Part shown: positions 13,136 through 43,694 of the stretch, in pieces
How positions within the stretch are numbered: the stretch's first letter is position 1
Layout of the letters: every line of letters begins with the position of its first letter
Origin: Proteromonas lacertae
Lineage: Eukaryota
Length of the DNA stretch: 49,816 bases
Assembly (NCBI GenBank): GCA_002245135.1
Contig: NGBS01000340.1
Span: 1 to 49,816, forward strand
Direction: 5' to 3'
The notes under the pieces: generated by a model
Database searches by the model: none
What the model was told of the DNA's origin: nothing
The model's input: only the letters and a program-made list of their open reading frames with translations
Made by a program: the position numbers and the translations under genes

Positions 13136-13168
<33 letters not shown>

Positions 13169-20900: not shown

Positions 20901-21119
20901 TTATATTTATTGGAAAGTAATGAAAGATTTAGAGAAATGATAATAAATAAAATGTGTGATTTAAATAACAATTTAAAAGAAATGAATTTATTCGATTTAA
21001 GTTACAATGGAGGTGGTATAAATACAAAGAAAGGTAGAGATGTAAATTCATTTCTATTTTGTCGTAGAACAATTCCTATACCATATGAAGCATTATTGCT
21101 ATATGTGTATAATTTGTGA
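17992..21119 (+). CDS. CR protein copy 2 (inverted relative to copies 1 and 3), different first exons, REase core deleted
   Basis: ATG 17992, intron 17995-18036, then ELKKRIYKRKRERTDIL; intron 19702-19739 joins ORFs 18283-19707 and 19800-21119 in frame; FPDIDA...QFTISKRH missing. Confidence 0.7.
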
Positions 21120-21649: not shown

Positions 21650-21655
21650 TGAGAT

Positions 21656-22036: not shown

Positions 22037-22220
22037 GTAACAAGTTAACAATTGTTAACAAGTTACCAAATGGTAACTCCGGGAGGTTCTAGCTAGTTGT
22101 GGATTTCTCAAGGGCCCTTAAAGATAATGATTAGCAATCTCGGAAGGCTTGTGAAGGTATGCTTTTCTTACTATATCTAGGAACAACCCGACAACTACAA
22201 GAGACTAACAAGACTGATAA

Positions 22221-22637
22221 TTACTTAGCTGATGATAAATTAACTAGTGCGTCTAGAGCATCTTCCATTACCTGGTGATTTCTTAGCTCAGAGAATCGTC
22301 TATCGATGTATTGCTTTAGCTGAGTGATGTTGAATTGCAAGGAGTAGGAGAATTGAAGGAGGTCCAATTCATGAAGAAGATAATTACGAAGGCTAGCTGC
22401 TAGCTCAATTCCCTTGTAATATTGCGGGTCCTTGAGGATAGGTATATCAAAGATAGCACTTACTGATTGTTTCACTTGATCGTAGAAGCTACCAGTCACT
22501 GTTGATGGGAACTGAGTCTTGACTTCTCCGGTGCTTACATTTAAGCTACTTTCAAAGGCCTTACAATAGCTTTCTAACTCAAGGTGGATCTTATCGAATT
22601 GACTTACTACTTGAAGAACATTGTCCTGGACGATCAT
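22221..22637 (-). CDS. Island hypothetical protein, family 'ILxDPxYY...LRxYLL' (may be the frameshifted 3' part of 22634-23293)
   Basis: PILKDPQYYKG...LRNYLL...LKQYID matches VILNDPEYYNA...LRDYLL...LKEFIN in 25415-25780. Confidence 0.5.
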   Translation of the reverse strand: MIVQDNVLQVVSQFDKIHLELESYCKAFESSLNVSTGEVKTQFPSTVTGSFYDQVKQSVSAIFDIPILKDPQYYKGIELAASLRNYLLHELDLLQFSYSLQFNITQLKQYIDRRFSELRNHQVMEDALDALVNLSSAK

Positions 22638-23293
22638 CCGATGAATATGAAGATAAGCACTTTCCCGTAGTTGATAAGTAAACCATCCTTTACAGCTCTC
22701 AGTATCGATACTAAGTCCAAATTCTTACTTACCAAGTGCCTGTACCTTCTAATAGCAATATATGACTCCTTGCTCTTACATCGGAGATTCATCTTCATTG
22801 TTATCAATGCCTTATCACGATAGCAGTCCAAGGAAGTCCTCAGTAGTAGTAACTTGTAATGGGCTATGATCAATGGTAGGTATAAAGGATCGGTAATCTT
22901 GAAGCTCTTAAGTACTCCATCGTAAAGCTTAGTGATCTCAGTAAGTTGCGGACTTACCTTGTTGAAGACTTTAAGATAATCCTGATCGTTAATGGGAGTG
23001 TCTTCTACGTCCTTACCATGAATGATAGTAGAGTCCAGAGTTACCTTGCTATGGATTATCGGGCTGATGTACTTATCAATGGCTTCCTTGTTCCGATATG
23101 GTTTACCATCGATGCGTAGTTTAAGTAAAGTCATGGTGATCTCTTCAATGGACTTACGATAGTTGGTAACTCTCTCTGTTAAGGTATGACGATAAATTCC
23201 AGGCATGACTTTCATTCTCGGCAAGTGACTCTCAACTCTCGGAGTCTTTGAAGGTGCAATGGGAACGTAGCTATGTTTTCTCTTGACGGACAT
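22634..23293 (-). CDS. Island hypothetical protein
   Basis: 219-aa ATG-initiated intronless ORF with island-type codon usage; no recognised domain. Confidence 0.5.
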   Translation of the reverse strand: MSVKRKHSYVPIAPSKTPRVESHLPRMKVMPGIYRHTLTERVTNYRKSIEEITMTLLKLRIDGKPYRNKEAIDKYISPIIHSKVTLDSTIIHGKDVEDTPINDQDYLKVFNKVSPQLTEITKLYDGVLKSFKITDPLYLPLIIAHYKLLLLRTSLDCYRDKALITMKMNLRCKSKESYIAIRRYRHLVSKNLDLVSILRAVKDGLLINYGKVLIFIFIG

Positions 23294-23509
23294 TTGCGAT
23301 GATGATTTTAAAGGAAAAGTACAACTACAGATTTCTGTCGATTCAAAGGACTGAGTTTACAATTACGACTTACCGATGTTAGTTGAATTAGTTTAAGGTA
23401 TTATCAAGGACTAGGATAAGTTAATGAACAGGTAAGGCAAGACATCTACGATAAGGTAAAGTCATCGAGCAATCGATAGTAAGCAATTTCCTAGAGGTTC
23501 AAAGGATTC

Positions 23510-24085
23510 ATGTTCACTTGTAGTAAATGCCATCGGAAGCTACCTCAAGAACTGAAGAAGGATGGGAAGGGCTTCTACAAGAGATGCTATAGCTGCCGTG
23601 AGCGTGATGAGATTAATAGAAGACGATATCAACTTAAATGTTTAGCACGAAGACAAGGCATAGAGTCAGGTAGAATTTCATTGGATGGAACACTACCTTG
23701 TTGTCTTTGCTATCATAACATACCGGTGAATTCATTCCTGAAGAAGACTGGAGGTTACTATAAGTGCTGCGATCAATGTAGGAGTATCAGTAAACAGTAT
23801 CATAAGAGAATGAAGGAATTCAATCGCCAGCTCAACATTATCGACAACTCCAATATTAAAGATGTTCAATCTACTAATCAAGGTAAAGTCATCTCCTCCG
23901 AGGAAGGTGCTTCTGATAAAGTTATACTCAAGGACTATCCCATACAGGTGAACTTATCGGTGTTAGCAAAGCCAGACAATGTCGAGGTAATCAACTCCGA
24001 GGAAGCGCATAAGGAGACGTTCATCGATCAAGTAAAGCGTGGATTCCAAGAGCTACTTAAGATGATCGGACTCAACAAGAACTAG
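23510..24085 (+). CDS. Double CxxC...CxxC zinc-finger protein (paralog 1)
   Basis: CSKC...FYKRCYSCR and LPCCLC...FLKKTGGYYKCCDQCRS. Confidence 0.7.
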   Translation: MFTCSKCHRKLPQELKKDGKGFYKRCYSCRERDEINRRRYQLKCLARRQGIESGRISLDGTLPCCLCYHNIPVNSFLKKTGGYYKCCDQCRSISKQYHKRMKEFNRQLNIIDNSNIKDVQSTNQGKVISSEEGASDKVILKDYPIQVNLSVLAKPDNVEVINSEEAHKETFIDQVKRGFQELLKMIGLNKN

Positions 24086-24249
24086 GAACTGGGATCATGA
24101 TCAAGACAATGATGAGTAAGTCAATGGAGGCCACTACAATTAACTCAAGGAAGGTAAAAGACCCGATAAGGAATAGATAAGGTACTGAAGGATAGGTGAT
24201 CATCAGCTAGTAAACAAATTCTCTTTACCTAGCAATTCAAGTCCCCAAC

Positions 24250-24525
24250 ATGAATATCATCTTCCGAGTAATTGTAGTCTCCTTACAAGATGCCCTCAAT
24301 TACTTATACGAGAATTTCATGTTCCTGACTAACGCGATGGCAATTGGAATCATCGGTACATTCCTTCTTTGTTTCAACTTTGCTAAGTGGTGTTGGACTC
24401 GTAGTAAGTGTTGTTGTAGATGGTGCTGCTTCCTCGGGAGTATTGTAGTTACTTTCATCGTCCTCTTCATAATAGTCACGATCATTACCTTGGTAAGCAA
24501 TGGAACGCCCGTAGTTGTTAGTTAA
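24250..24525 (+). CDS. Small membrane protein with Cys/Trp cluster between two hydrophobic segments
   Basis: AIGIIGTFLLCF-NFAKWCWTRSKCCCRWCC-FLGSIVVTFIVLFIIVTIITLV. Confidence 0.5.
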   Translation: MNIIFRVIVVSLQDALNYLYENFMFLTNAMAIGIIGTFLLCFNFAKWCWTRSKCCCRWCCFLGSIVVTFIVLFIIVTIITLVSNGTPVVVS

Positions 24526-24744
24526 GCCTTACAGCTTCGGTCTTTACAATGATGTGGTATGGGGACGATCATTAACAATAAACCAAGGAGTTCAAAGGCC
24601 TTTAAGTTAAAGAGCTGAAGAAGATGGAAGCTCCCTAGAAGTCAACTCCGAGAAGACAACTTCAAGAAGACAGCTTCAAGATCGTGGCTATGAAGTTGTA
24701 ACCCAACACAAGGCAAAGTAACTATGCTGATGATATTATCAATA

Positions 24745-25338
24745 TTAATAATAAGTCAAGGAGTTGATTAGGGATTCAGTATCGTCCAGGGACCTCTGGA
24801 GGCCATCAGCATCATCAATGATCATCTTCAGGTAGTTGAAGGATTCAGAAGGTGGAATGGCTAAATCATTATCGTGAAGCTGTAGGAGTCGGTACTCACG
24901 GAGTGTAGAGAGCTTAGTATGGATGATTGAGTAGTTCCCATAATTGTCAACGATGTCAGCTCCATGCAAACAACCATTGGGACTTCTATCTTGAGCAGCT
25001 AGCAAGTCATCATGATCTTTCATGATAAGGTAAGTCAAGGACCATAGTTCATCCCTAAGTTCTCCATGCCTGATGTAATTCTCTAGATCATTATCTGAGT
25101 CGTAAAAGTTTAGCTAAGGGTGCTCCCTGATTAAGCTTCCCATCATTCTATTGCAGTGGTTGTAAAGAGTAGTGGATTTAAGAAGACATCTCCTGGTAAG
25201 CTTTACGCACCTGTCTACGACCTGCTTATCGATGACTCCATTAGCATTGATATTGAAATGGACTGGAGATCTCTTAGTCATGGTAAGTGTGTATGCAACT
25301 AAAGCAAGAGATTTTTCAAAGGTAAGGAAATTGAACAA
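24745..25338 (-). pseudogene. Island hypothetical gene split by one in-frame TAG
   Basis: ORFs 25114-25338 and 24745-25038 share a frame: REHP*LNFYDSDNDLENYIRHGELRDELWSLTYLIM. Confidence 0.5.
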
Positions 25339-25414
25339 TACCGGAGATGTTCAAGGAGATGATCAACCCAACACAAGACAAGAAGCAAAGGTAAGGACTA
25401 GATTATAACTTAAG

Positions 25415-25780
25415 CTAGTTACTGAGAGTCTGGATTGCTATCGATGATATGGACAAGGATGATAGAATCTCTTGATCCTTGTGAGTTCTACGATCAACGA
25501 TCTCCTTACCGAGTAGGTAATACTTATTGATGAACTCCTTAAGGGACTTCGTAGCATTAGCCAGGCAATTGATCATAGGCAAGATGTTGAAGCAGTTAAG
25601 CAAGTAGTCTCGGAGTACACTTACTGAAGGAGATGCATTGTAGTACTCAGGATCGTTAAGGATGACAAGACCATAAACACGATGGAAGGTAGCTTCTCCT
25701 AGCTCACGTAGATCAGTCCTTGGATCACAAGTCCCTAGTAGTAATAGTTTTCTAGGATCAATGTTACGCCTTACGATATT
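25415..25780 (-). pseudogene. 5'-truncated paralog of 22221-22637
   Basis: Shared ILxDPxYY/LRxYLL motif; composition shifts at ~25780, where an AT-richer segment replaces the 5' end. Confidence 0.5.
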
Positions 25781-26121
25781 TAAAAAGTGCAAGAAATTTG
25801 AAACTAGATGAAGTGTCAATTCATAAGCATTAATTGTAAAATGCCAAATGCAATGCATAGTACCAGTGTATTGGGTATTAGTCAAAATAGTATTGAATTT
25901 AGTCGTTACAAGATAGTCAAAATAGAATTGCAAACTAGTCGTTTCAATATATGAAGGTATATATACATGATTGAAGGTTCTTTTCCTTGGGGGCGTAGCC
26001 CGAATGGTCAGAGGAATGCCGTAGGAAGTACTAGCCCAGCCGGGTAGCCCAGCCTGGTTCAAATCTTGCTAAAGGAAATAAAAGTTAAATAGGCGCAGCG
26101 CAGCTAGCATGAGAAAGAACA

Positions 26122-26184
26122 CCGTTGAGAAGTAGGCCCTGTTGGGAGGAATCCCGTAGGAACCTTACGTAAATGGGACTCTGG
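26122..26184 (-). repeat. Internal partial copy of the terminal repeat (right-end orientation)
   Basis: ccgttgagaagtaggccctgttgggaggaatcccgtaggaaccttacgtaaatgggact is the reverse complement of ~21754-21812. Confidence 0.9.
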
Positions 26185-26421
26185 TACATCATAAATCCCA
26201 AAAATAACAAAATTACTCTTAACATATTTACAGTGGATTTTGATGAAGCTATACCATTATATGTCACTCAGATAGATAAATTCAAAAATTGGCCTCATGC
26301 CAATGTATTGTTCTATGGAAATCATTTTTACCCAATTATCAACCTCAATGCATTTTTATTACCATTAAAACAAAAATGTAGTAATTATGTAGAAAGATGT
26401 CCATATTGCTTCTGTAGAGGT
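26185..26421 (+). pseudogene. Fragment resembling the N-terminal region of Polinton/Maverick protein-primed PolB
   Basis: NNKITLNIF...IPLYVT...HANVLFYGNHFYPIINLNAFL...CPYCF follows the pattern N.ISINVF...IYPL.......HVNLL...HY..I.NL..LL...C..C that I recall from Polinton pPolB. Confidence 0.55.
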
Positions 26422-26422
26422 T

Positions 26423-26619
26423 AACACTTCTCCTCTGGCATCTGACAATTGCTTAAGTTCTTTGAATCGTGATTGAAGCTCCTGAGAATGCTTTGTGTAC
26501 ATCTCCTGGAGGTAGTTCTTTTGTTGGCTTCTACAACTAGGACATCGGATATAGTATCTCTTATCAGGCATCTCAAAGTCTCGGGCATTGAAGCACTTCC
26601 TGCATTCTAAGCAAGGTAA
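26423..26619 (-). pseudogene. Zinc-finger paralog 2, truncated at 5' by an element terminus
   Basis: Extending ORF 26365-26571 upstream gives LPCLECRKCFNARDFEMPDKRYYIRCPSCRSQQKNY, cut at 26620. Confidence 0.7.
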
Positions 26620-26620
26620 A

Positions 26621-26858
26621 TATATAGTATATAAATGGGACCCTGGGACATTGTCACAGAGTTCTAACGAGTGTTCTAGGAGTCCGTCCCTTTCTAGATT
26701 CAGAGTTGACCTTTACGGGAGCTTCATCGATTGCATAGTCCCATTTACGTAAGGTTCCTACGGGATTCCTCCCAACAGGGTCTACTTCTCAACGGGGTCT
26801 ACTTCCCTACGGGTACTCCTGGAAGCTATCTAGAAGTGTTGGTTACCTCGAGATGATG
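26621..26858 (+). repeat. Internal copy of the terminal repeat including the probable true outer end (TATATAGTATATAAATGGGAC), inner palindrome arm deleted
   Basis: 26621-26641 is the reverse complement of 37052-37072; 26644-26731 is the reverse complement of 21665-21752; 26734-26858 matches 21751-21935 minus a ~60-nt segment. Confidence 0.9.
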
Positions 26859-27282
26859 GTAATGAAGAGGCAGTGATCTCTTTCGGAGTATGGGTAAGAA
26901 CGTCTCAGAGGAAGCTTCCTTACCAAGGACGATGTTGCGGAGCAATATCGAACTTGGATAGGAAGGTTCCTTCGTAGACGTTCTTGTCCATGCCCGGAAG
27001 AAGAACTGCTTTCTTCATTACCAGGATCATTGAGAAGGTACTTTCATTTGATCATCATCCAGGGTTGTTGAATCTCTTGGAGTTGTTGCTGCCCGACAAA
27101 GCAAGGTAAACTATTTGCACCATAGTTGGGCAGCTCCGAAGGTGGTCACTGATTATAGTTATCCTCTTGCTTAGACTTCCTCTATCTATTGCTTTCCCAT
27201 AACTTCAGTCTCGGTATCGGCTTTTCCTGTAATGTTTTTGATCGATCCCAAGACAGAACCTTATCGATGAAGATTGCAATCC

Positions 27283-29748
27283 TTAGTTATACAAAGTAGT
27301 GCAAGTGAAGATAAGCGGAAGGTCGAAGGAAGATGCTGCTATACTCTCTTGAAAGAAAGTAAGCTGATCTTTACCATTGAAAGTCATAAACCCTGAACGT
27401 CTTGTTGATTTACCAGTCTTGAGAATATGCACCCAATAAGAGGTTTTATTCTCGAGGTGAAATGCCCTTAAGAAGCAACATACCAGATCGTCACTCGGGT
27501 TGACAATAACTATTCCATCAAATGAGATTGTTATGTAACTTCGATCTGTTGCAGTGATGGATAGCTGAACTCTGTTCGGATAAGCCGTAAAACAACCTTG
27601 GCAACTATTCACGTAGCGAGGTATTGTAATCTGAAGGTTCTGTACTTCAGCGATCACGGTATCCTGACTATTAAGGATGTAGTTCCACATTGAAGTCAAG
27701 GCCTCATTCATCTGATTAGCTACCGTGGTAATCTCCGATGATCCATCTCCTTGAGATGCCAGGCTTTCTACTGATGTCTTTAACTCGGACAACTTCTTCT
27801 GGACATCCTGGAAATTGCTATCGACGGAGTTGATTTTACTTAATTGAGCTGCATTGGTAAAGTTGTTTACTTGAGTCACAGCCAGGTTGTTGAGGTTGTT
27901 GACTTTGACTTGGACTTCAATGACTCTTGTCTGGCAGTCTCCTATCTTTGAATGTACTTCATTGACCTTGGTTAATTGAGCTGGTGAACAGAAGCTATTG
28001 ACATTCCCGGTATTGAATCCATCGATCTTGGTTCTGATAGCAGCTGTATTGTTGATAGCTGTATCGATCAGTCCTTTACGAGTATTGTTAAAGAAGCCAT
28101 CCAAGTTCCTTCGGAGGTTGTCTTCTTCAGTCCTTCTAGCCACGCCGCAGGTTGCATTCACATCATTGATACTTAGAGAATCCACCTTGATCTTGATTGC
28201 ATCGGTGTTGGCCTTAGTTGTATCAATGAAGTTACCACTGCCTTCAGTACAGAACTGGTTAAAACTCTCCTTGTTGAGGTCATGGACACGTTCATAACGC
28301 TTATCTATCTTCTCCGATCGATCCGAAGTACAGAAGTGCTTCACAGCAGTGTTGGTCTCATCGATAGCAGCACTTCTCGGAATAGTACAAAACTCCTTGA
28401 TCGCGTTGTCAGCATCGTCGATCTCCTTAGTTCTCTTATCGGTAATGAATCCTTTGATCAGTTCCTCAATACTCTTGACAATGGTAAGTCTCTCCAAGGA
28501 GCAGTAGTTGTTAATGTCTTCGATGGCTATGCCGGTGATCAGCTCATGGACTTTATCAATCTTCTCCTTCTGTGAGCTACTACAATACTGGTTGATATTA
28601 TCGATATCTATCTTACTTACAATATCCTTGTTCTTGTCAATAGTGGTAGCTCTCTCCTCAGTGCAGAAGGTATTCGTCTTGTCAGCTTCTCCATTCAACT
28701 CGGCGATCTCTTCCTCCATAGCATTCATCTGGTTCTTAAAGTCCTTGTTGTAACCATTGGCAATCTCAATCTCTTGTAAGACCTCCTTGAACTTAATCAT
28801 GTTGTTGTTAATCACAGTATTGATTGCCTTGTACTCCTCGTAGTTGTTCTTCATCTTGATCAACTCCTCAGAATCTACTTTGATCTGCTTCTCTAAGTCA
28901 GTGAGCTTCGTAAGGCTCTTATCATCCACCGTAGTGATGTACTTGATCATATCGTAGACGTTAACATCCCCGATGTTGAGACTCTCGCATAATGACTTCA
29001 ACAAGGTATTTAGACGATCCAATTTCTCATCCTCTGATCCCTTCAATTGATCGATTGAAGTATTGGTGGATTCAATGGCATTGCTTACATCCTCCATGCT
29101 CTTATACAACTCTGGTAATTGCTTCTCCGTGTACTGCTTAAGTTCATTGCTGCAAGTAGCAATATTGCTCAAGGTTGTAATAGTCGTATCTCCGAAGTCT
29201 TTAGGGATCTTGTTGTTAAGTAAAGTACCTAGGTTCTTAACTTCCTGGAGCTTCTGATCGATACCTTCAATCTTATCAGTCTCATCTAGCACTTCCTTTA
29301 AGGTCGATTGAATAGCTTTATGATCTGGTTGTAAGGTATCTTGAAGGTACTCATGGAGTTGATGATGATCAGTCTCTAGCTTAGCCAACTTCGTAGATGA
29401 CTCCTCCGAGTGATCATCCTACTTTCTCTTGATAGCTGTTGTGGATGAGGTTACTTCTTCTTGTTGCTTCTGATTGATACTGACGGGTGTTCCTCGGAGG
29501 ACTTCTTGGATAGTGCTTACCAATGGAGGATTGATCTTATCATAGTCTATCACGGCCTTGAGTTCACCAGAACCCAAGGCCTTTTGAATCACTTCCTGGG
29601 AGTCTTGAAACAACACGTCCTTATCATACTTAACAACAACCTTCCCATCTATCTTTTGCTTCACATCGTAAGTAGTCTTGTCGATAGTATTAAGTAACCT
29701 TAACATCTCCTCATCGTTCTCCCGTAAGTTGTTCCCGGTGTTGAACAT
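27283..29748 (-). CDS. Long coiled-coil, fibre-like protein with internal N-x-F/Y-C repeats and a beta-rich C-terminal domain; one in-frame TAG at 29419-29421
   Basis: ORFs 29419-29748 and 27283-29388 share a frame (KRK*DDHSEESSTKLAKLE); repeats such as INQYCSSSQKEKID, IKEFCTIPRSAAID, VKHFCTSDRSEKID, FNQFCT, VNSFCSPAQLTKVN. Confidence 0.6.
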
Positions 29749-31160
29749 TGCCTAGGTAATGATTCCAGATCAGAACTTTACTTATAGATCCAGGAGCTAC
29801 TTTACTTAGATGACTTCTCAGGTATCTATTATATCATAACATGCCCTGGCCTTCAACAGCTTTGCCTACCTCCCGAGAAGTACCTTGTTAACTCTATCCA
29901 CACGATGAACTTCAACTACTTACGATTACTAGCTGATGGATGTAGATGACTTTATCGGTCTTTGTAATGAGTTGCGTGATCTCTATGCTGTGAACTTCAT
30001 AGTCTCGATCATCATCTACCATCTTAACTTACAATGCTTCTATTCCGATAAGACTTATACGATGGTCAGAAGCCTCCTTTGAAGTTCAGCTACTCTCCGT
30101 AGACTTCACTTGCACCTAAGATTTCCAAGGATCTACTAATCGTCTCTCTATTCCAGATGCTCCTTTACCTTCTTGGACTTCTCTGACTTGGCAGCCATTA
30201 CCTATGAAGTACTTTGTCTTCACTCTTGGTTCTAGCAGTCTATGATCCACTGCTATGATAAGTACCTTGAGACTGACTGCTGAAGTTAGAGTTGATCTCA
30301 TCCTTAACATCTCTTGAAGAACTACTTGTGATCTTTACCGATACCTATCTCTTGAACTGATGGTAACCCTTCAAGTGACAATTCCTTCTAGTTCTAGTTC
30401 ATCGAAGTTGTTGATCCTCAGTAATGTACTAGCCTTCAGTCTGATCACTACTAGTCTCGGCATTGTTATTGAAGTCAGTGTCTTTACCTATCTACTATTA
30501 ATCACCTTACGATCGATAGCTTATAGACTCTTGGACATCTATGCCAATGTTGCTACTTGAGGAGTATACGATATCTCTGGTCTACTTACTTACTTACTAG
30601 TAATGATTCCTAGCATCACAAGTAAGGACTACTCAGGTAAAGGATTATCGATCACACTTCCTATAGTCTGCAATTGTAACTCTTTATGTACCTACAACTA
30701 CTTCATGATCTTCAGAGTCATTGATCCAAGGATGTTATCTCGGGGTTGTTGATGTCCTTACTATCATTGACTTATCCGAGACTCCTTTAGTTTATTTAAT
30801 TGATTACTTACCATGTCCTTGAGTTGCTCATCTCCATAAGACTCCTTGAATTGATTATTTCTATTGTCCTCGGTCATACCCAAGGTAACATTTTACTAAG
30901 TACCAACAATGTTAATCACGTTCCTTATCAGGAGATGCGTTTACTACTACTACTACTACTACTTGTGGAAGTTATGATGACTTTGCCTGGTAAGGAGTTG
31001 CTTCAGAAGCTAGCTTTAGATACTTCGCTGAAGGATCACTTGAAGCACCTAGCGATGGTACTGAGGGTGTTGTTATCGGTCTCTTCTTCGAAGGATTACT
31101 AAGCTGTTTTTGTCTCCTCATTGATTCTATCCTGAGTCGGAGATGATCTTCATATTGTCT

Positions 31161-31751
31161 TTAGCGATGATACAGACTCAAGAGACAGCACATCGGAAGT
31201 GACTTTACCTTTAGATCTACGTGAAAGTTGATGTGTCCATCTTTGATAGATAAAACTATCTTGGCCTGGCAAGACTTCTCTTTGAGGTGAACAGCATCAC
31301 ATGGAAATGAAATAATCTTATCGAACATCCCATCATGGTCGATTAGATCATTGTTATCCTTGATTGTCTTAAGAATCTCATGTATACTGTGTTGCATAAG
31401 CTGATTAATTATATCCCTTGTTTTATCAATGGAGTTGATGGAGATTCCTGGTTGTTGATTCTTAGTAGGTTTCCCAGATCTACATCTTGGACAATATCGA
31501 TAGTAGTCTCCATTGGGCTTTAACATCATCGATGAAGCGAAGTGCATATAGCATCTACTGCAGGACATAGTCTTGGCTATGAGTTCACCGTTCTCTTCCA
31601 AGGCTTTACGTTCCTCATGGCATCGGGCTATTGTCTTCTGCTTTGCCTTTCGTAAGAGAGCTCTACAAGAACTACAACTGCTGTATGCTCTTCCATCAGC
31701 TTCAGATTGGAACTCCTTCTTACATCGACTACATTTGACGATGGATTGCAT
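31161..31751 (-). CDS. Double zinc-finger protein (paralog 3)
   Basis: CSRC...GRAYSSCSSCR and CSRC...LKPNGDYYRYCPRCRS; ATG at 31751. Confidence 0.7.
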   Translation of the reverse strand: MQSIVKCSRCKKEFQSEADGRAYSSCSSCRALLRKAKQKTIARCHEERKALEENGELIAKTMSCSRCYMHFASSMMLKPNGDYYRYCPRCRSGKPTKNQQPGISINSIDKTRDIINQLMQHSIHEILKTIKDNNDLIDHDGMFDKIISFPCDAVHLKEKSCQAKIVLSIKDGHINFHVDLKVKSLPMCCLLSLYHR

Positions 31752-31930
31752 GGTTACCAATTAAGTATAAAAATAACTAGAAATATCTTAATGCCTTGAG
31801 TGACTGTAATAATAGACTGGTTACTACATATTAATCTCATGGTTATTAGATACTTGTTTATTAGCTTTACTTTTATGAGTTCTTATTCATATCTCGGGAA
31901 TGTTGACTTCATAAGGCAACTGTGGTAAGT

Positions 31931-32875
31931 CTAATTCATCATCATCACATCCGATATGGGACTTAAGTCATAGTCATCTTCGGGGTGTTGGTTCAGCTGC
32001 TGGTTATCTTGTCGATAGTGACATGGTAATCTCGGAACCTTTATCTTGATGGACAAAGTAAGTTCATTGTCTATGGGTTCTTCCATTATGTACTCTCCGT
32101 AGTCTACTTCCAAGGGATTATCATGTTGTTGTTGATCACCATCATCATCCTTGGACTCCTCCAAGTGATTCTTATCATTGACTTCAAAGGGATTGGAATA
32201 CTCATGTAGTTGTGAGTCCAAGTCCATCTCCATGCCATTGATAAACTCGTCCTCATTCACTAGATTTACATCTTCGTGAGGTGTCAACTCCTTGGTTGGA
32301 TCCTTTATAAGCTTTCTTAAAGACTCCTGGTTGAGTTGATCATCATCAACTACAATAGACTTCTTCTTCTGGGTAAGTTGCTCCATAGCTTCCATGGTTG
32401 AATCTATTACTGGGTACTTCAAAGGCTCCTTGGAGTCTCTTAAGTTGTGATAGTTCTGAAGGCTTTGTTGGTGCTGATGATGTTGGCGTTGTCGTTGCTT
32501 TAGGTTAAAGTATCGTTGGCTTTCACGGGACCTACATTCATCACAATGAGCCAAGTACTTTCCATTAGCTTTCTTAGTGAAGCTACTTACTGGTAGATAT
32601 CGTTTGCAGTGTAAGCATGGTAGAGTATCGGAAGGATTAGTTGCTAGTTGTTCAGCTTGCTTTCTCTTACGTCTTAATTCTTCATACCATCGAAGCTGGC
32701 CTTTGGAGTTGTATCTACTTGATTCCTTGTAATAGTTTTCATCCTTGATCTTGTTGAAGCAATCCAGACATAAGCTATCTCCTTGCCTTCCATTCCTTGA
32801 TCCTTGATCGATAAGTATCTGCTGGTGACATTCAACACATCGGGATTGATAACTAGGTTGCGAGTCTGAAGACAT
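31931..32875 (-). CDS. Double zinc-finger protein with acidic tail (paralog 4); likely ATG at 32875
   Basis: CVEC...CLDC and DTLPCLHCKRYLPVSSFTKKANGKYLAHCDECRS, close to GTLPCCLCYHNIPVNSFLKKTGGYYKCCDQCRS of paralog 1. Confidence 0.7.
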   Translation of the reverse strand: MSSDSQPSYQSRCVECHQQILIDQGSRNGRQGDSLCLDCFNKIKDENYYKESSRYNSKGQLRWYEELRRKRKQAEQLATNPSDTLPCLHCKRYLPVSSFTKKANGKYLAHCDECRSRESQRYFNLKQRQRQHHQHQQSLQNYHNLRDSKEPLKYPVIDSTMEAMEQLTQKKKSIVVDDDQLNQESLRKLIKDPTKELTPHEDVNLVNEDEFINGMEMDLDSQLHEYSNPFEVNDKNHLEESKDDDGDQQQHDNPLEVDYGEYIMEEPIDNELTLSIKIKVPRLPCHYRQDNQQLNQHPEDDYDLSPISDVMMMN

Positions 32876-33713
32876 TTCAATAAGGTGAGTATTTTGAACT
32901 CCTAGGAAATTGTGAATTGGCTTCTCCTGGTAATTCCAACGATTCAGCTTCAACTAAATGGCATCTATACGATCAACACTAGTACTAGGTACAACTATGG
33001 GACTTTGAATTTACGATTGATAGGTACTACGATCCATTCCTCCTCCTTCATCAGCTCTCCTGATACTTGTTTCATTACGGTGTCAGCTACATCCTCCAGT
33101 ACCTTCTTTACCTCCCTGTTGACTACAATCGGAAGCCACTCCTGATAAGCCTTAAAGATTCGTAAGTATCTCTCGGTGTGAAACTTAAACTCCTTCAGTG
33201 TTGTACTATGCTCATCTTATGATTGTAGACCTTCTGGGGATCATCCTTCAGTGCTGAAGACTCTGTGGGTAATGGGTCGTAGAGATAGAGTACTTGCATT
33301 ACTTTGTAGATCCCTTGCAAGTTCCCATGCAGGTTCCTATGCAGGTTCCTATTCAAGCTCCTTTGAAAACTACTAAGGCTGGTAAAGGTAAGAGATCTAC
33401 AAAATCATCCTTTCCTACTCCTCCAGCATCAATGAGCTATTACTCTAACTACAATCCTTATGCTGCTTACGTTCCATCATTCGGAGGAGTCTATCAGCAA
33501 CAGACCCAACAAGTAACAACCTTATCCAGATACTTCTAAGTTCCTTAATCACTTATCGTTGATAACCTTGAGTTGTTTAAGGGCTACTACAATCATCTTC
33601 TAGTATCTATCGGAGATACTTGTTAATACGTCCCTGACATCTCCTATCCGATGATATCTATTTGCTTATTGTCCATCCCTACATAAAAACCTTTAAGATC
33701 TTAGGTAATTTAC

Positions 33714-34150
33714 TTAAAGGCAATGATCACCATCGCAATAGCTTACTTCAATCGGGAATGGTTGATTGTAGTCTTCATCTAGTTCATTTCCTTGAACTTC
33801 CTCGGGACTTAGATCGATCTTGTAATCCTTGAGGAGCTTCTGATAAAGTCAGGTTCTGATACTTGTTGTAGGAGTCGGTAATACTCCTCCTTGGAGATCT
33901 CTTCATAAGGCATCTGCCGGTAGGTTGTTTTCATCTGGTCAGTGGCAATTGAAGGTAAGAATGATACTACTGAACGAAGGCTGGCAACATCAACTGGGAA
34001 GGAGATCACCGAGGTTGTCTCTGGGCAATAGAAGTCATCTTCAATCGGATACTCTTGCATGTTCTTCAACCAGCAAATACCAGGCTCTCCATTCTTCCGT
34101 ATGTGTTCAGTTATATTGCTATAGTCCATTCCTTTGACTGCAAAGGCACC
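33714..34150 (-). pseudogene. nrdJ: Collapsed class II (adenosylcobalamin-dependent, monomeric RTPR-type) ribonucleotide reductase
   Basis: FAVKGMDY...NGEPGICWLKNM | YPIEDDFYCPETTSVISFPV | VSFLP...YRQMPYEEISKEEY; after a frameshift, C-terminal YCDGDHCL* (stop 33714-33716). Confidence 0.8.
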
Positions 34151-34172
34151 ATAGAGAAGTTGAACCTCAACC

Positions 34173-34487
34173 TTACTTCCTTTTGTATAGATCTCCGATC
34201 CTTCCATATCCACTTATAAGGTGGCGATGGAACTTGGCAGACAGGTCTATGATCTCAGCATTGAAAGAAACATCATCATCGTCTTCATCCTTGGAGTTAG
34301 TGATTGTAAGTGAAGGTTTAGGAGGGAGAGGAGGAGGAACATCATCATCATCAACAGCAGCAATCATCTCAGCCTTCAACTTCTTATATTCCGGCTTAAG
34401 CTTAATTCTGAACACTTTAGTGTCTTCCTCATCGCTGGAAGATTCCTCGGAGGCATTGTCAGGTCTAGTTCTCTTCATGATATTCAT
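34173..34487 (-). CDS. Island hypothetical protein (acidic, PPPLPPKP motif), first ORF inside the right repeat
   Basis: 104-aa ATG ORF starting ~30 bp from the inner border of the right terminal repeat. Confidence 0.4.
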   Translation of the reverse strand: MNIMKRTRPDNASEESSSDEEDTKVFRIKLKPEYKKLKAEMIAAVDDDDVPPPLPPKPSLTITNSKDEDDDDVSFNAEIIDLSAKFHRHLISGYGRIGDLYKRK

Positions 34488-34697
34488 GGATCAGAAAAGA
34501 CTCAATGGAGATCTTAACAATTGTAAACTCCCGGTTCCATAATGAGTTTCCACGATTCTATTAAAAGCCCCTACAAGGTCACCAGAGTAGCAAGGAGACT
34601 CTAGATCGTGATCAGATTCATCACCTCGAGGTAACCAACACTTCTAGATAGCTTCCAGGAGTACCCGTAGGAGATCGTTTCATAGATAGGTATAGAA

Positions 34698-36813
34698 CTG
34701 AGTTCGGCAGGGACAGGGACAGGACGGGACAAAGGACGGACAAAACTCTAAATGGACGTCCATTGTCGAACTATAGGATGTAATATCATAAATATAATTT
34801 TTTTTTAATTTTTATTGAAAAAAGAGGAAAAATTTATACTATATGGTATTAATTAGTATTTAATAATCAATAACAAGGACTGCCATGTTCAATATTTACT
34901 ACTTCATTATCTTCCTCTTCATAATTTTTATTAATTTCTCCTTCTATTTCTTCATCATTTATTACATCTATATCTTCATCACTTTCATTCTCCTCCTCTA
35001 ATTGAATGAAATTTTCATTTTTTCTTTTTTTATTTAATAAATAGAATTTAATAAGTAATATGTTGTTAAGTGTATTTATACTTAATCGATTTCTTAAGTG
35101 GCTGTGTATAATACCTTCTATGGAAAATGTACGCTCTATATAAGAATTAGAAGTGGGGATATTTGATAATATGTCATATATCCTCTTCAAATTTGGGAAA
35201 TAATTTCCATATGTTGAATACCAAATAACCGTACACTTTTCCTCAAATATAGTTGATGGGCTGTTATTATAAATCTCTTTATTCTCAAAATAATATATTT
35301 CTCTTGCTAAGTATTTATCACTAATGCCTGAAAAATTATCTATGATGAATTTTTTTATTTTATTTCTTTCAGATTCTTCTAAATTGTTTTCTAATTGTAG
35401 AAACATATATATCAAGATCATCTCGTAATTTACATGTCGCATAGATTCTGTTATTATATTGTCTATTGATTGTTGTTCTGTTGCTGTTAATTTTCTAATA
35501 TCACTATTTAATTTTGATAATATTAAGTATGCATCTTTCAAATTAGAACTGTCCTTACTAAGAATATGAATTTTGAGCATCCCTTTCTAATATGAGGAAC
35601 TTCACCATTGTTTTCATAAATAGTTTCTCTTACACTTTTGCAGGTATTTATTTTATGTTGTATGTTGTTGCAATAGTCTAATATTACTGTATATTTTGGC
35701 AATTCTAAAATATGTTTGCTTATGATGTTCAGCACGTGGGCTAAACATCCAAAGCTTATGACTATATGTCCTGTCGAATGTTCTACTATATCTGCTAAAC
35801 TTCTCATTGTAATATTGTTGTCTGATACTATTGAATAAATCCATTCTAAACTTATTTCGTACTTTGAAAGAGTCTGTTTTATTACATTTACAAGATTCTT
35901 TGCAGTTTCCTTTTGTTTAATTATAACGCTTTCTAAAAACACAATCTTATTTTGCTTTATAGCAAAATTGAAAATGTTATCATTATTGGTGTTTCTCCAC
36001 CCGTCTAGAAGTAAGGTAATTTTATTATTTTTTATTATTGATTCATTTACTAACGTATTACCCTTTTCATTGATCATATCTTTTATTTTTTTGGCTGAAG
36101 GTATTACTACATTATTTTGACTTAATTGACTTAATAGTGTTTTAAATGATGCACTTTCTACTATCATATCTACAATTATATCGTTAATTTCTAGATCTTC
36201 GGCATAATTATACTCTGTTATTTGTGTTTGTGATGAATTATTCTTTTCATAACATTTGTGATGTACGACATTTCTTGCATTGTATTCTTTTATTTTTCCC
36301 ACCATTTTTATCTATTACTTCTTCCAAAGTTTTTAAATCATAATAACCCCAAACTTTATCTCTTACTCTCGCTGGTAATGACATTAAAATGAAAAAACTT
36401 GATTAAAACAAGCCAGAAAATGTTTTGTATAGAATTTATGGAGTTATAATCAAAGAAGATATTTCATTATAGCAAAATGTTGTTATATATCATTCATTTG
36501 AGTTATTACAAATGTAATATGTCGTGATTAGAAGTAAATATAAATATTGTTAATTAGATATAAGATGGGATAAAAAATGAGTAAAAATAATTAAGTACGA
36601 TTACAATATGTTAATATAATAGTATAATTGAAAAATAATATATATATTTGTTAATTTTTCAGTAGGCAGGAGTATAATGCGTTTTATGGATATAAATAGT
36701 ATTTTTGTCAATTTATTACAAAAATACTAAAAAAAATATTACAAAAAGTAAAAGTGACAAAAGGGACAAAGAAAGGGACAAAAGTCGAAAAGGACGTCTT
36801 TTGCCTAACTCAG
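34698..36813 (-). mobile_element. hAT DNA transposon 1 (2116 bp)
   Basis: TIR CTGAGTTCGGCA / TGCCTAACTCAG (11/12); 8-bp TSD GTATAGAA at 34690-34697 and 36814-36821; GGACA subterminal repeats at both ends. Confidence 0.95.
34867..36305 (-). pseudogene. hAT transposase, frameshifted at ~35560
   Basis: LLLDGW, IVSDN, CLAHVLN, W..YG..FPNL, IPTSNSYIERTFS...RNRL; two overlapping ORFs, RW motif region missing. Confidence 0.9.
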
Positions 36814-37103
36814 GTATAGAAATAGCTTACAGGAGTCCCGTAGGAAGTAGACCCCGTTGGGAAGTAGACCCGGTTAAGAATCCCGTAGGAACCTTACGTA
36901 AATGGGACTATGGGACAAGTGTCAGAGTTGTAACGAGTGTTCTAGGAGTCCGTCCCCTTCTAGATTCAGAGTTGACTTTTACTGGAACTTCATCGATGCA
37001 ATCGATGAAGGCCCGTAGAAAACTCGTTAGGACTCTGGCACTTGTCCCAGAGTCCCATTTATATACTATATACCTATAAATGTATGTCTATGTAACTCGC
37101 ATA

Positions 37104-39308
37104 TAAGGTGCTAAAAACTGCGCCAGTTCTACGATATTTCTACGTTGCCGTGGTGCCGGCCGGCGCTGGGTTTCATAAAAAAATAAAAAAATAAATAGTG
37201 AAGGGGGAGTGATTTAAAGTATAAAAATGTATTGAAATTGCTATATAATGTAACTATAAAAAAATAATTATCAAAAAATAATCTTTATTCTTTTTTATGA
37301 GTTTTCTTTGTCAATCTGCTATATTTTTTGGACCAAAATTTAGAGATGGTATTGTATATAAAAGAAAATGCATCCTATGCAATTTTAACGTCAATATTGG
37401 TATTTATTTTATAATAGATATAATTAGGTACACAAAAGGATTCAAACACATCACACTTAAAAAGCCATCTAATGAAGAAACATAAATTTAGTGAAGAGTG
37501 TATTAAAAACAAAAATTTAATCTAACACTTTAATCAGACAACAATACCAACATACAGCAATATCAATAGAAAAATTCTTTACCAATACGTGGCAGCGTTA
37601 CACATAGATTGTCGACCTTTGCGATTTGGAGATGGATATGGGTTTAGTAGTTTTTTTAATACATTACATATAAAATTACCTACATATAAGCAAATATCAG
37701 ATACAACCGATTCAATAATATCGTTAATAAAAATGAAAATGGAATGCGACATAGAAAACACTAAATTTGTGAATATTCAAATGGACCATTGGAAAGGTAA
37801 AAGGACAAACTACTTAGCTATTTTTGTGGACTTCATGAAAGATATGAATATTACATCTTATTTAATATCTACAAAACAAGTAGATAATAAAAAGTCTGAA
37901 ACTACATCAATTATACTAAACAATTTACAAAATACTATATTACATGACAAAATAATAACGGCAACAAGCGATGGTGCCAGTGACATGGTAGCAGCTATTA
38001 AGATGTGCTCCTTTATACATATACATTGTTTTAGTCATCGTTTACATAACGCATTATTAAGATCGGAAGTTATAATTAAAACATCTGTGAATAAATTTAG
38101 TATACTCCTTGATCATTTAAACAGGAAGGACAATTTCTATGAAGAACTAAGGAAAGTTTTAATATTAAAATATAATCAAGAAAAGTTAAATATAATAACT
38201 GCCAAAATACCAAGTGCTATAGATGTTAGATGGTTCTCTTGCTACGACATGCTTCAACATTTTGTTGAATCTTTTAATGATATAAGATCCTATATTCAAG
38301 TAAATATTATTTTCAATTTAATTATTTTGTAATTATTAATAGGTTATTGATAAAGATTACACAGAAGAGTTCCCAAATAATAATGATTGTGATTTAATTG
38401 TAGAAATAGTAAAAATACTTAAACCCCTAATCGAATTACAGAAAAGGTTGATTCAAAGAAATCGATGTTCATTAACAATTATAATTAAAAGATTAAAAGT
38501 AGTTCATAGAATACTAATTATAAAGAAATGTATAGTTTAAGATTGAAAAAATCAATTAATGCAGCCGTAAGTGGTTTATGTTTAGAATATATTGAAGAGT
38601 TGCTTAAAAGATTTAGTAATACAGATAAATATAATTATTTATGTATAGAAAAATTTCCTTCTGAGGTAAAAGAATTAAAGATAACATCATTGTTGAATCC
38701 ATTAAATTATAAGTTGATGGTAAAAGATGATTACAGAGAGTTATTATATGAAGAAATCTGTTCAGTAATATCATTGACTCACACAACAAATGCTGTAAAA
38801 AACATATATGAAAGTGAAGAAGATGAAGAATATTTACATTCAGATAATGTCGCATTAAAAAATATAGCGTTTGAAATATCTACAAGTTATATTAATGATT
38901 GTAAGAAATATTGTGAAGAATATTATAAAACATTTGAAATAGAAATATATGATAAATTTGACTGCTTAAGTTATTGGCAATCCATACAAGATAAAACATA
39001 TTTCAAATATTTTGAACCTTTAATTCAACATTACCTACCTATTGAAGCAACAGAATTTAGTTGCGAAAGTCTTTTTCATTATGGTTGTATGATAAATTCA
39101 GATTTTAGAACAAGATTAGAATCTACAACAGTTTCAAATACATTATTTCTAATAGGAAATAGAAAAGAAATGTTTGATATATTAAATAACATAACTGATT
39201 AAATATTATATACTTATTATGTTTTTATTTTCTCTAAGTACAGGAGGCGCTCGCCTGGTCGGCGCTGGCGGTGGATGCCTGCCTAGGGGGGAGGCGCCAA
39301 ACACATTA
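37104..39308 (+). mobile_element. hAT DNA transposon 2 (2205 bp), a different family from hAT 1
   Basis: 8-bp TSD CTCGCATA at 37096-37103 and 39309-39316; imperfect ends TAAGGTG / CACATTA; GCGCC/GCCG-rich subterminal tracts. Confidence 0.9.
37297..39202 (+). pseudogene. Spliced BED-finger hAT transposase with premature stop and frameshift
   Basis: Intron 37400-37427 yields CILC...TSHLKSHLMKKH (BED finger); in-frame TAA 37523-37525; QMDHW, TSDGASDM, HCFSHRLH, DVRWFS; intron 38300-38342; shift at ~38520; YW...IEATEFSCESLFH...RTRL. Confidence 0.85.
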
Positions 39309-39433
39309 CTCGCATATTTTTTGTATATATAATAACTCATCCTAATTACCATATTCTTTTTGTTGATGAAGAAAGAAAATATATAAAACATAATACAGTT
39401 AATAACAAAAAAAAATATAAAAAAGGAATAATT

Positions 39434-41096
39434 TCAATACACATATGGCAATAATGCTTCATATGGTATGGAAATTGTTTTTTTTACACTTTTTGCTTTA
39501 TCAATTAATACTTTTATTTCTTTTTCTTTGAATTTTTTAATTCTATATCTATTTTTAATAAGTAGATTTCTAAGAAATAGTGGAAATGATTTTACATCTC
39601 TACCTTTCTTTGTATTTATTCCAACATCCTCTTGAGGACTTACATAGAATAAACCTAAACCATTATATCTACGACCTTCATACATTTTATATAACTGTTT
39701 TAGTATATAAACCATTTCAGGTGATAAGTCATGTCTTTTACTAATAGTAAACTGAATACCCATAGGATCAATCAATGCATCAATATCAGGAAATCTTCCA
39801 TTGTAACTTAAATCGAATAAATTCATTTCTTTTTTATTCATTCTTTTACCTAAATCAATATCATCTTTAACTTCCACTACTTCAACATTTTTTATCTTGT
39901 CTTTTGTCGTTTTATGTTTTCTATCTTTATATATTTTATCAATAATTAATTCTTTTAAATTGTTATTTAAATCACACATTTTATTTATTATCATTTCTCT
40001 AAATCTTTCATTACTTTCCAATAAATATAACATTATATTCTCATATATACATCCAATTATACTTCCATTTGTAGATTTAAACAATAAATTTATCATCTCT
40101 TTGCATTCTTCTATTGAAGTAATTTTGAATAGTACTTTCGTAGCTATTTTTTGAACTGTTTTAGATATGAATATCAAATGATTGGATTCAGTAACATCTT
40201 CATATGTTTCATATATTAATATTTTATTATATTTTGTATTGTTTTCATCTTTCGAAAGAGAAGATAAACTAATTCCTTTTATAATGTCTTTGATTTTGTG
40301 ATTTTCTTTCATTTTAGTAAGTTCATATTTAATCATTTCTTCATCACATTCTTTATTTCCAATTATACCTCCATAATATTCATAATTCTTTCTATATAAT
40401 TCTATTTTTTTTTCATAATCAATTAGCTTTGCAGGCAATGTTGATCTTTCTCTTAATTCACATCTATTAATAAAATGTCTTGTAGGTAAAATATTTTTGG
40501 GATTTTCTAGAATTATTACTTTTTCTACTTCTTCTTTTGTAAATGGAGGTATATACATTACCAGAGGATATCTCTTACTCTCAAATGTTTTATACTTTTT
40601 ATCACATGGATCAGCTAATAGTATTATCATTTTTGCATCAGCATAATCATCTTCTCCAATTACACCTCCATCACAAATTAATATATAATCTTTGTCTATT
40701 TCACATTCATTATAACCTTTTATTCTCTCTCCGTTTCCATCTATATGTTTTATTCTAACATTTTCATTCCTCTTTTCATAAATATATTCTTTTATAACAT
40801 TCGCTAATATTGATTTTCCTATTCCAGCTTGTCCAAATATTAAATAGTTCTTTTGATGTTTAAAATCTAGATTCATACCTTCAGGATAAATAATATCCAA
40901 AATTGATTTATAACATTTTCTCATCAAATAAATAGTATTAGCATCTATATCAGCAAATATTTCAAAATCCACTTTTTCTGGTAGTTTACATAATGGTGAT
41001 GGATTTTCAGTTACAGCTTCTTCCTCTTCATCATCTTCCTCTTCCTCCTTCTCCTTCTCTTTCTCTTCTCTTTTTTCTTCTTCTATTTCTATTTCA

Positions 41097-41129
<33 letters not shown>

Positions 41130-42997
41130 CTTCCTCCTCCTTTTGCTACCACTTTGCGACTTTCATTTAAACCACAATATTTATATTCACAATTTTCATT
41201 TTTATTATATTCCCATTTTATTATATTATATAAATATAGATTATTTATACTTTGATTGATTTTTCTATTTTTGTTTCATTAGTTTCTAATCTCTCACCAT
41301 CTAATAATATTTTTATAAATATTCCATTCATTATTAAATCAAAATAATTGTTTTCATCCAATATAAAATAAACAAAATGTTTTGCACCATCAGGATGATG
41401 AACTAAGATTGGCTTATCATAATTTAGTCTAAAATTTTTATCTTCTTTCACATTTAATTGTATTATATCTTTACTCAATTCATATGATATCATTTGTTTC
41501 ATTACACCTCTTTTCATTTCTTTATCATCATTCTTAATTTCATCATAATATCGACATAATTCACTATATTCTGGTTCATTCTTAGGTGGATAGAATTTAT
41601 TCATTATGTATTTTTCAACCTTCTCAGATATGAATTTTAAATGATCTTTTGGTACTAATACTTCATGACCTAAATAAGCATTCATTTCTTTTTCATAATC
41701 ATATCTTAATATTATATTCGATAATCCATTATTATCAGTTAATCTTTCTTCTTTCATATAATTACTAACAAAATTATTATAACCAATTGTACCAACTACA
41801 CTATCTATTAACTTCACATAATATTTCCAATAATCTCTACCATAATTCTCTTTATATAAATGATGAAAGTAAATCAATCTAGGAATATTACCATATGTTT
41901 TACATATTTCTTCAAATTCATCATCTCTGTCAATACCAATACATTTATCAAACCATTTTACTACTTCTTCATAACTTAATGTTTCGAAATATAATTCAGT
42001 TATATCTCTTCTAGCTTTGTATGTTTTAAAATTATTTTCATCTGGTGAACTAATGGATATTACGATATTATTTGGTTTATATTCGCCATTATAAGTGTCA
42101 ACTATTATTATTGACTCTGTAACATCATTCATGTTTGTATCTACTATACAGATTTTGCCATCTTGGTTAAGTTTATACACTTGCTTTTCAAGTGGATTAC
42201 CATTTTTTTTTCCTTTTACTACATATATACCATTTATTTCTCTTTCTATTCTTTTATCTTCATCCATATATCTATAATCATCATATGTCTTTAAACAATG
42301 TAATAGATAATATAAGAAACTTGTTTTACCTATGCCAGGTTGGCCACTTATTATAATTGTTGGATATACATTTCTGCTCATTAGTTTGATAATATCTTTA
42401 TACATTTGTAAGTAACACGATCTCTTCAAAATCATTCTCTTTGGAAATTGAAATACATTAACACTATCATCTCTAAATCGTAAACAATCTTTATCATCAT
42501 CTACCAAACTATTTATTATCTTCACAAAATTATCTTCTTCTAACTTTCTTCTTTTACATATATCAAACACAACATTTAATTTTCTTACCATCTTTATTCC
42601 TCCTGATATTGTTGATTCTAATAATTCAGGAACATATTTACAGAACATAAACAACTGTGAAGACAAACTAATAGCATTCTTCTTCTATTCAATATAATAC
42701 AACTATATACCACTTCTAAAGGATTTAGCTGTTCTTTTTGTCGTTTAATTTTTAATGGTTTATGTACAAGTGAAGGGAGTACAGGCTTAACAGTTGGTTT
42801 AACAATCTAACATTATAGGAATTTATAATACATTTGTAGCTGTCTTTTTAGACTCATTTCCTAAAATATCGGTTCTTTTTCTTTTTATACTATCTCTGTA
42901 TTTTTCTTCTTTACCTATGCAATATATAAATACTTTAAAAAGCAATACATTTTAGTTTTGGTACAATAAAATCAACCTTTACAGCAAAGCAGCTCAT
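39434..42997 (-). CDS. CR protein copy 3: intact Walker A in both NTPases and full REase, but intron-4 acceptor is GG instead of AG
   Basis: ATG 42997; GIGKT and GIGKS; FPDIDAL...QFTISKRH; plus-strand tcccatttta (c at 41214) versus tcctatttta in copy 1. Confidence 0.75.
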
Positions 42998-43694
42998 ATT
43001 ACTATCTATAACTAAATTATATATAAAAAGAGAAAAAAATACCGAATAAAGGAGGTGCGAATAATTCAAATGATTGTGAAAATAGCCAATCAAATCATTC
43101 AAAATGAATTATCAAGCATTTGGCTTGATCATAATTATTTTTAAATCAATTTTTATTGTGATGTAGAAGAAGATTAAAACTAAATATTTGTTAATACCAT
43201 TGCACTGCATAAAAATGTATAAATATTATGTTATTTGACCTAAACAATAATTGTAATAGAATGTTGTGTAATTTCCAAAAGCTTGAGTATAATCCATTTG
43301 AATGTTTATAAATTCTAATAAATAATCCTTGAATATAATCCAGTTGAGCAAATCTCCCTTATATCCAAGAAATGAAATGATGGAGATAGAATACTTGACT
43401 AATTTACTTTGAATTAGTAAACTAAGCAGGGTTGTATAGATTGGTGATTGATTGTAGTTGTTGACTGTTTGATATAACTCTGATTTAGATTATTATACTG
43501 ATTTACAGAAAATACTACCTTCTTATGCTGTATCACTACCTCAGGTTTTAACTAATAATTAATATCAAACAAGAATCAACCTTTCATTATTTTATAATGA
43601 AATTCAACAAAATACAATGTAATATATAAATAAAAAACACTTACATCACATCAGTTAAAGACTAATCTACAAAAATAATATATAAAATAAACCA

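Follow-up and report, generated by a model that had tools for sequence, protein, structure and literature searches.

Palindromes lying within the terminal inverted repeats (TIRs), beside duplications, were described by Haro et al. (bioRxiv 10.64898/2026.07.28.741278) in the endogenous virophages of subtypes 1, 2, 5, and 6 and the PLV of subtype 4 of Halocafeteria seosinensis, and a search of the available literature on such structures in Blastocystis/Proteromonas-type hosts, or on PLV hairpin termini in protists, gave nothing closer. The palindrome of subtype 5 measures 52 nt. To account for end replication in PLV- and virophage-sized elements without a protein-primed polymerase, Haro et al. 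2026, the one report found, propose a hairpin-priming model that they call untested. In parvoviruses, the termini are imperfect palindromes of 100–550 nt that prime replication, and an integrated parvovirus copy is described as starting near the flip-flop tip (PMC12297876). Here, we describe a locus of Proteromonas lacertae in which a palindrome much like these caps the ends of an integrated DNA block.

The window, that is, the whole stretch of 49,816 nt that was analyzed, has 23–28% GC and eukaryotic genes, except for a block at about 21650–37070. Its host genes include a kinase, phosphatases, RGS, and BCNT (Pfam), and the named best matches of the kinase are mostly oomycete proteins at ~50% identity, which makes a stramenopile-like host likely. 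The insert, at 21656–37072, has 41% GC apart from an inserted transposon, against a GC fraction of 0.25–0.27 outside, with a GC step at 21650 at its left end and the right limit of the 41%-GC DNA within 30 bp of the right end copy. It carries orphan genes and is bounded by terminal inverted repeats capped by the palindrome. Two units can be distinguished, unit 1 of 4.5 kb (21656–26184) and unit 2 of 8.3 kb without its hAT transposon (26621–37072), both bounded by inverted ends; the end copies form inverted pairs enclosing gene blocks. Self-comparison also showed that the locus is rearranged and set in duplicated host DNA. Three near-identical copies of a host-GC segment, 95–99% alike, lie at 11716–15519, 18063–20996 (inverted), and 39680–43480; they carry P-loop ORFs with weak nSTAND3/AAA matches and may be another mobile element or an expanded gene family. 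A tandem array of ~1950-bp units with a weak EF-hand ORF occupies 3340–8427.

The first-pass annotation had proposed that the termini contain a palindrome of ~230 bp with a 3-nt-loop hairpin, and the hairpin is real: the segment 36899–37061 folds back with a DNA MFE of −51.6 kcal/mol (z −11.1; 0 of 200 shuffles were equally stable) around a perfect 10-bp stem with a 3-nt loop at 36988–37010, the sole perfect stem of at least 10 bp with a loop of at most 5 nt in the window outside the TA microsatellite at 1159–1209. Its size had to be corrected, with an arm length of 100 nt giving an intact palindrome of 203 bp (100 + 3 + 100), of which the right copy keeps 163 bp (99 + 3 + 61). This right copy, in a terminus of 47% GC, consists of an inner arm of 99 nt (36899–36997, +), the loop (36998–37000, +), and an outer arm of 61 nt (37001–37061, +). 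It does retain both arms, as had been claimed, with the qualification, left unstated there, that 38 nt are absent from the outer one.

By self-comparison, we found four end copies, which we call L, N, M, and R from left to right, each of them without full symmetry; only three had been listed before, and the fourth, N, is an inverted fragment at 26119–26184 (−) holding the inner flank and the first 15 nt of the arm. The left copy, L (21656–22040, +), had been said to keep only the inner arm, and it does keep this arm (21665–21764), together with the loop (21662–21664), the inner TIR up to 22040, and also 6 nt of the outer arm. Similarly, the 26621 copy, M (26621–26858, +), keeps the outer arm (26632–26731) and the loop (26732–26734) behind a candidate 6-bp duplication (26621–26626) and 5 nt, and its inner arm is not wholly gone as had been thought, given that 13 nt remain, the other 87 of 100 nt being deleted across a 3-nt microhomology; its inner flank has a further 60-bp deletion between repeats. 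The inner TIR of the right end, R, is split by a hAT into the pieces 34514–34697 and 36822–36898 (34514–36898, −), 91–92% identical to the left end, with the inverted repeat common to L and R extending over about 385 bp at that identity. Two end variants exist, as the first-pass annotation had recognized: variant A in L, N, and M, which are 97–98% alike, and variant B in R, which diverges by 8–9% over the whole TIR. Inside the arm, the ends have 65–280 bp of common sequence with 17-bp tandem repeats, and the short repeats are confined to the ends, with all 9 exact copies of one 8-mer in the window falling in the four of them. At the inner edge of the left TIR, there is, in addition, a 64-bp palindrome of 18-bp tandem units (22020–22083; fold z about −7), not present at the right end.

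The relations among the arms are more complex than those first described. The inner arm of L and the outer arm of M, reported as exact reverse complements, agree at 98 positions with 2 mismatches, while the two inner arms of L and R agree at 91 with 8 mismatches and 1 gap. Were inner and outer arms separate lineages, the inner arm of L should be at least as far from the outer arm of M as from the inner arm of R; for a comparison that covers four arms, one truncated, all at a single locus, the 2 versus 9 differences give a one-sided binomial p of 0.033. The right end fits the idea of arms co-varying by terminus less well. Of 61 aligned positions, its two arms agree at 53 and differ at 8, apart from the 38-nt gap, whereas the outer arms of M and R have 54 matches, 7 mismatches, and 3 gaps, so that the outer arm of R is no nearer its own partner (8 mismatches) than the outer arm of M (7 mismatches plus small gaps). 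A block near arm positions 20–26 unites both R arms against L and M, and the claim that both right arms carry the other variant applies to this block only. Some side-specific mismatches are common to both end variants, and position 12 of the arm sorts by side and not by terminus, the inner arms of L, M, and R having A there and both outer arms C. The arm-by-arm alignment that had been recommended, carried out here on the four copies, thus places the inner arm of L nearest the outer arm of M and leaves the outer arm of R no nearer its own inner arm. Since 8 of 61 aligned positions differ besides the gap, the R arms are not well homogenized, and homogenization of arms within a terminus receives limited support from these alignments. 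The comparisons suffice to establish at least one exchange of information between arms, though not its manner, and to show that the palindrome is older than the A/B split, the latter because the tip, the loop orientation, the arm length, and the outer boundary are the same in both variants.

With respect to flip/flop, the loop orientation is identical in all three copies that keep a loop (of four), just as the first reading stated, and its conclusion that no flip/flop is seen was too strong, given that position 12 is opposite in N, where the inner side carries C, the outer-arm base. This is the state expected of an inverted (flop) terminus, and we take it as a hint, namely one base, noticed post hoc, in a loop-less fragment of 15 nt.

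At the outer boundary, the symmetry ends at the same base in both copies that have an outer arm (M and R) and is followed by 11 common bases, at 37062–37072 (+) in R and, inverted, at 26621–26631 in M. They may be divided into a 5-nt end (37062–37066) and a candidate 6-bp TSD (37067–37072), in which case a 6-bp direct repeat encloses 26627–37066; the hexamer is of low complexity, and the identity between the enclosed ends is only about 90%. With a self-complementary hexamer, this division of the 11 bases is ambiguous, and the hexamer may equally be the element's own tip rather than a duplication. The other end pairings (L with N, L with R) had no duplication longer than 4 bp. Duplications of 6 bp are typical of rve-INT (PMC12220804; PMC8097293). 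The outer flank was also considered as a decayed mirror of the inner flank and rejected as such, with 234 of 2000 shuffles reaching as good a best local score and, in a second comparison omitting 10 bp of flank, 732 of 2000. A continuous reading frame over the candidate empty site was likewise discarded, one of three frames being open for 10 codons, which is about chance.

At the left host junction, the host joins L 6 nt beyond the loop, a host paralogue (10338–10814) ends at this same junction, and a 10-mer at 21649–21658 (+), overlapping the palindrome remnant by 3 nt, repeats the host sequence 21625–21634 located 24 nt upstream. Such copies occur for 4 of 13346 four-letter host 10-mers and for 189 of 32067 of all 10-mers, and this 10-mer is likely a templated end-joining filler, templated filler being described in PMC7407515 as a signature of synthesis-dependent end-joining (SD-MMEJ). 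The junction fits either a captured opened hairpin or a chromosomal palindrome broken at its tip.

Between N and M lies a filler (26185–26620) made up of a piece of 27% GC, in which 83 codons form an open frame, and of a zinc-finger gene fragment of 42% GC, and it is this broken fragment that makes up the DNA outside M at 26621. A possible likeness of the filler frame, 26173–26421 (+), to the N-terminal region of the protein-primed PolB of Polintons was not supported by our searches, with 0 of 11 candidates confirmed. Two hAT transposons were inserted later, one in the right TIR (34698–36813, −; Pfam Dimer_Tnp_hAT E 1.4e-6, DUF659 E 5.2e-12) with an 8-bp duplication at 34690–34697 and 36814–36821, and the other 31 bp outside the right end (37104–39308, +) with an 8-bp duplication at 37096–37103 and 39309–39316; they differ from each other, and their duplications are intact.

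Unit 1 contains orphan ORFs at 22221–22637 and 22634–23293 (both −), a zinc-finger ORF at 23510–24085 (+), an ORF judged hydrophobic by eye at 24214–24525 (+), and two more orphan ORFs at 24745–25350 (−, with one internal stop) and 25415–26068 (−). All the ORFs of unit 2 are on the minus strand, including one for a 701-aa coiled-coil/repeat protein (27283–29388), others at 29419–29748 and 34173–34487, zinc-finger ORFs at 31161–31760 and 31931–32953, and a 134-aa ORF at 33809–34213 with a weak class II ribonucleotide reductase (RNR) match (phrog_367, E 0.0038; TIGR02505, E 0.049, far below the cut-off). The latter ORF is open and its weak match covers only the C-terminal part of class II RNR; we presume that it also resembles a central RNR segment, as if internally deleted. 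A within-element phmmer comparison identified four zinc-finger paralogues and two helical paralogues. The motif CCTAG, followed 3–6 nt on by TTCAA, occurs at or just before ORF starts at 23488 (+), 24226 (+), 29758 (−), and 32908 (−), these four occurrences comparing with a mean of 0.043 in 300 simulations for a motif picked after inspection, and this suggests an element-specific promoter. Beside the middle end, there is a second long imperfect hairpin of 167 nt (26857–27023, +), which folds as RNA to −108 kcal/mol on the plus strand with 7 G-U pairs and to −85 kcal/mol on the minus strand with 3; no Rfam family came near its gathering score, and it may be a structured RNA or the precursor of small RNAs. 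We dismissed a tRNA-like gene near 25990 (0 ARAGORN genes; fold z 0.2), as well as a decayed capsid gene in 29750–31100, a region with neither a sustained coding signal nor a six-frame Pfam match.

Scans of the element ORFs and of the read-through frames of two non-coding gaps against Pfam, PHROGs, and NCBIfam, libraries which may miss divergent capsids, detected no capsid, ATPase, Rep, helicase, or polymerase gene and no integrase, tyrosine recombinase, primase-helicase, resolvase, protelomerase, or HUH gene. The search for a protelomerase, resolvase, or HUH gene that the first-pass annotation had advised was therefore negative for the element ORFs present here. Two AlphaFold single-sequence models, with a mean pLDDT of 48 and 40, were too poor for a fold test, and Foldseek gave 0 matches at E 0.001. 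The zinc-finger ORF protein search ended with 0 of 535 candidates confirmed, and the zinc-finger profile had no PDB match; the 701-aa ORF had 0 matches among 1.84 billion representatives, the RNR-like ORF none in phages or the PDB, and the Atlas no usable match for either of two proteins. Four single-protein scans of viral contigs confirmed no relative, and exact DNA patterns of the tip, the arm/flank junction, and the inner repeat had 0 matches in viral contigs, metagenome contigs, and prokaryote genomes.

Most probably, though with moderate confidence, we are dealing with a linear, virus-like, non-autonomous element, now integrated, of which the palindrome forms the open fold-back terminus. 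The terminal position of the palindrome and a fold-back role fit because the ends are inverted, a GC step marks the left one, and the repeats are confined to the ends. As for its working, we infer that, in the free linear form, the end would fold on itself as a hairpin of 100 bp, thereby prime DNA synthesis, and be resolved near the stem base. Either a helper virus or an intact relative would provide the enzymes for priming and resolution. Pairing within the stem would allow selection or repair to keep the arms alike, as in their common block; close to the stem base, a few mismatches would nevertheless persist and swap sides on resolution, as position 12 would do in flip/flop. The 26627–37066 unit may have been inserted by an rve-type integrase acting in trans, leaving the 6-bp repeat. 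At the left, a break would have occurred 6 nt away from the tip of the hairpin, and this end would then have been end-joined to the host. Once in the chromosome, the long palindromes would have been shortened by deletions between microhomologies. With no replication or capsid gene detectable in either, the two units seem to derive by deletion from a larger parent.

We also considered that the palindrome was made or homogenized in the chromosome, by fold-back repair or arm-to-arm conversion, with no role in the replication of the element. Every copy is damaged, the rearranged locus sits in duplicated host DNA, and the A variants at 21656 and 26621, at 97–98% alike, could be local copies, all of which this explanation would accommodate, and Haro et al. 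(bioRxiv 10.64898/2026.07.28.741278) give accidental annealing after single-strand breaks as an alternative. We nevertheless hold it to be rather unlikely, given that the tip, the loop orientation, the arm length, and the outer boundary are the same in variants 8–9% apart, and therefore predate the split, and that the side-specific mismatches are likewise common to both. The chance that we are dealing with a fold-back read or assembly artifact is minimal, since the right arms differ by 8 substitutions plus the 38-nt gap, and since separate places, each with its own flanks, show the structure again.

Of the three analogies offered by the first-pass annotation, namely parvovirus termini, poxvirus concatemer junctions, and protelomerase sites, the open parvovirus-like terminal palindrome is the only one that appears to fit, with no mirror symmetry for a poxvirus junction and no gene for a protelomerase. 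A free molecule with covalently closed hairpin telomeres of the poxvirus/asfarvirus or protelomerase type, in which the two-armed copies would represent junctions after replication and the left copy a hairpin that had opened 6 nt away from its tip, would explain why the left junction lies exactly 6 nt past the loop, and the weak class II RNR remnant suggests a larger-virus ancestry for it. The replicated form of such a telomere would, however, be mirrored beyond the hairpin, and here the symmetry ends after 100 bp (the 234 of 2000 shuffles above); moreover, resolvase and protelomerase had 0 matches, and any palindrome in a chromosome is expected to break at its tip. To this, we add that the templated filler is as for an end-joined 3' overhang (PMC7407515), in favor of closed telomeres, and that the 47% GC of the right terminus stands against the 84–93% A+T given for poxvirus hairpins in PMC8956199, which leaves this explanation improbable in our judgment. 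We are a little more doubtful still that the palindrome is a recurrent site, acting as a cruciform origin or in recombination, within a larger and possibly circular viral genome, of which the insert would be a fragment. Two of the four copies are internal to the insert, that at 26621 being flanked outside by the 42%-GC zinc-finger DNA, and the adjoining short repeats resemble initiator-binding iterons, as such a site would have them, yet the copies are paired in inverted orientation about the gene blocks, the limits of the 41%-GC DNA coincide with the outermost two, and what lies outside 26621 is a fragment of a broken gene.

Going beyond the fold-back terminus itself, we put forward, as a speculation more likely wrong than right, that the locus represents a class of linear DNA replicons, small and helper-dependent, not described before and belonging to a stramenopile-like protist. 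These would have self-priming flip/flop hairpins of 200 nt, ends of two types, a promoter motif of their own, a structured RNA, a shrunken class II RNR from a larger virus, and 6-bp duplications made by an integrase in trans, with the two units being copy-back (A...A) and internal-deletion (A...B) derivatives of one parent. Given genes without detectable relatives, an intact parent could represent a new lineage of viruses or satellites. With its internal mismatches, a palindrome of 200 bp also offers markers (loop orientation, position 12, and the A/B block) that short perfect palindromes do not have, making flip/flop and arm homogenization directly testable here in reads.

Compared with known systems, the locus shares with the Halocafeteria virophages and PLV the palindrome at the outer TIR edge of a protist-integrated element, beside a duplication (a candidate one here), as well as the GC contrast, the nesting with host DNA transposons, and the fragmented copies without core genes. 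Its palindrome, at 203 bp versus 52 nt in subtype 5, is about four times longer, the insert is GC-richer than its host, and it is set apart from what is described there by its two variants of the end, its side-specific mismatches, and its remnant resembling class II RNR. Of the features of PLVs and virophages, a TIR of hundreds of bp (about 385 bp) and a palindrome at the TIR extremity are present, and a TSD of 5–6 bp has as its candidate the low-complexity, self-complementary 6-bp repeat around 26627–37066, while the profile scans found no major or minor capsid protein, packaging ATPase, integrase/recombinase, or polymerase/primase-helicase; the Halocafeteria elements carry capsid, ATPase, rve integrase, and replication genes, of which 0 were detected here. 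Transpovirons, in the available part of PMC11788076, are likewise TIR-bounded DNA of a few kb (about 7 kb there) with few genes, including zinc-finger and one hydrophobic protein, no capsid, and a promoter-like motif common to the genes; that part makes no mention of long terminal palindromes, and our element differs in having no detected helicase and in being located in a cellular genome. Poxvirus and asfarvirus telomeres (PMC8956199) also run from an imperfect inverted repeat through short tandem repeats to genes, whereas here there is no mirror symmetry beyond the arms, no A+T richness, and no detected resolvase. With the Parvoviridae, finally, the locus shares an imperfect terminal palindrome (163–203 bp) within the 100–550-nt range given in PMC12297876 and an integrated copy truncated near the tip, the one swapped base in N being a hint of possible flip/flop; it differs from them in having no detected NS1/Rep (HUH + SF3 helicase) or VP gene and about a dozen orphan genes in units of 4.5 and 8.3 kb. 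We leave the family and the enzyme unassigned because no hallmark genes and no relatives were found, and membership of PLV/virophage, Parvoviridae, transpovirons, or the group with poxvirus-type telomeres fails in each case on a tested defining feature. By analogy, the ends of this element would work like the palindromes of Halocafeteria and the telomeres of parvoviruses.
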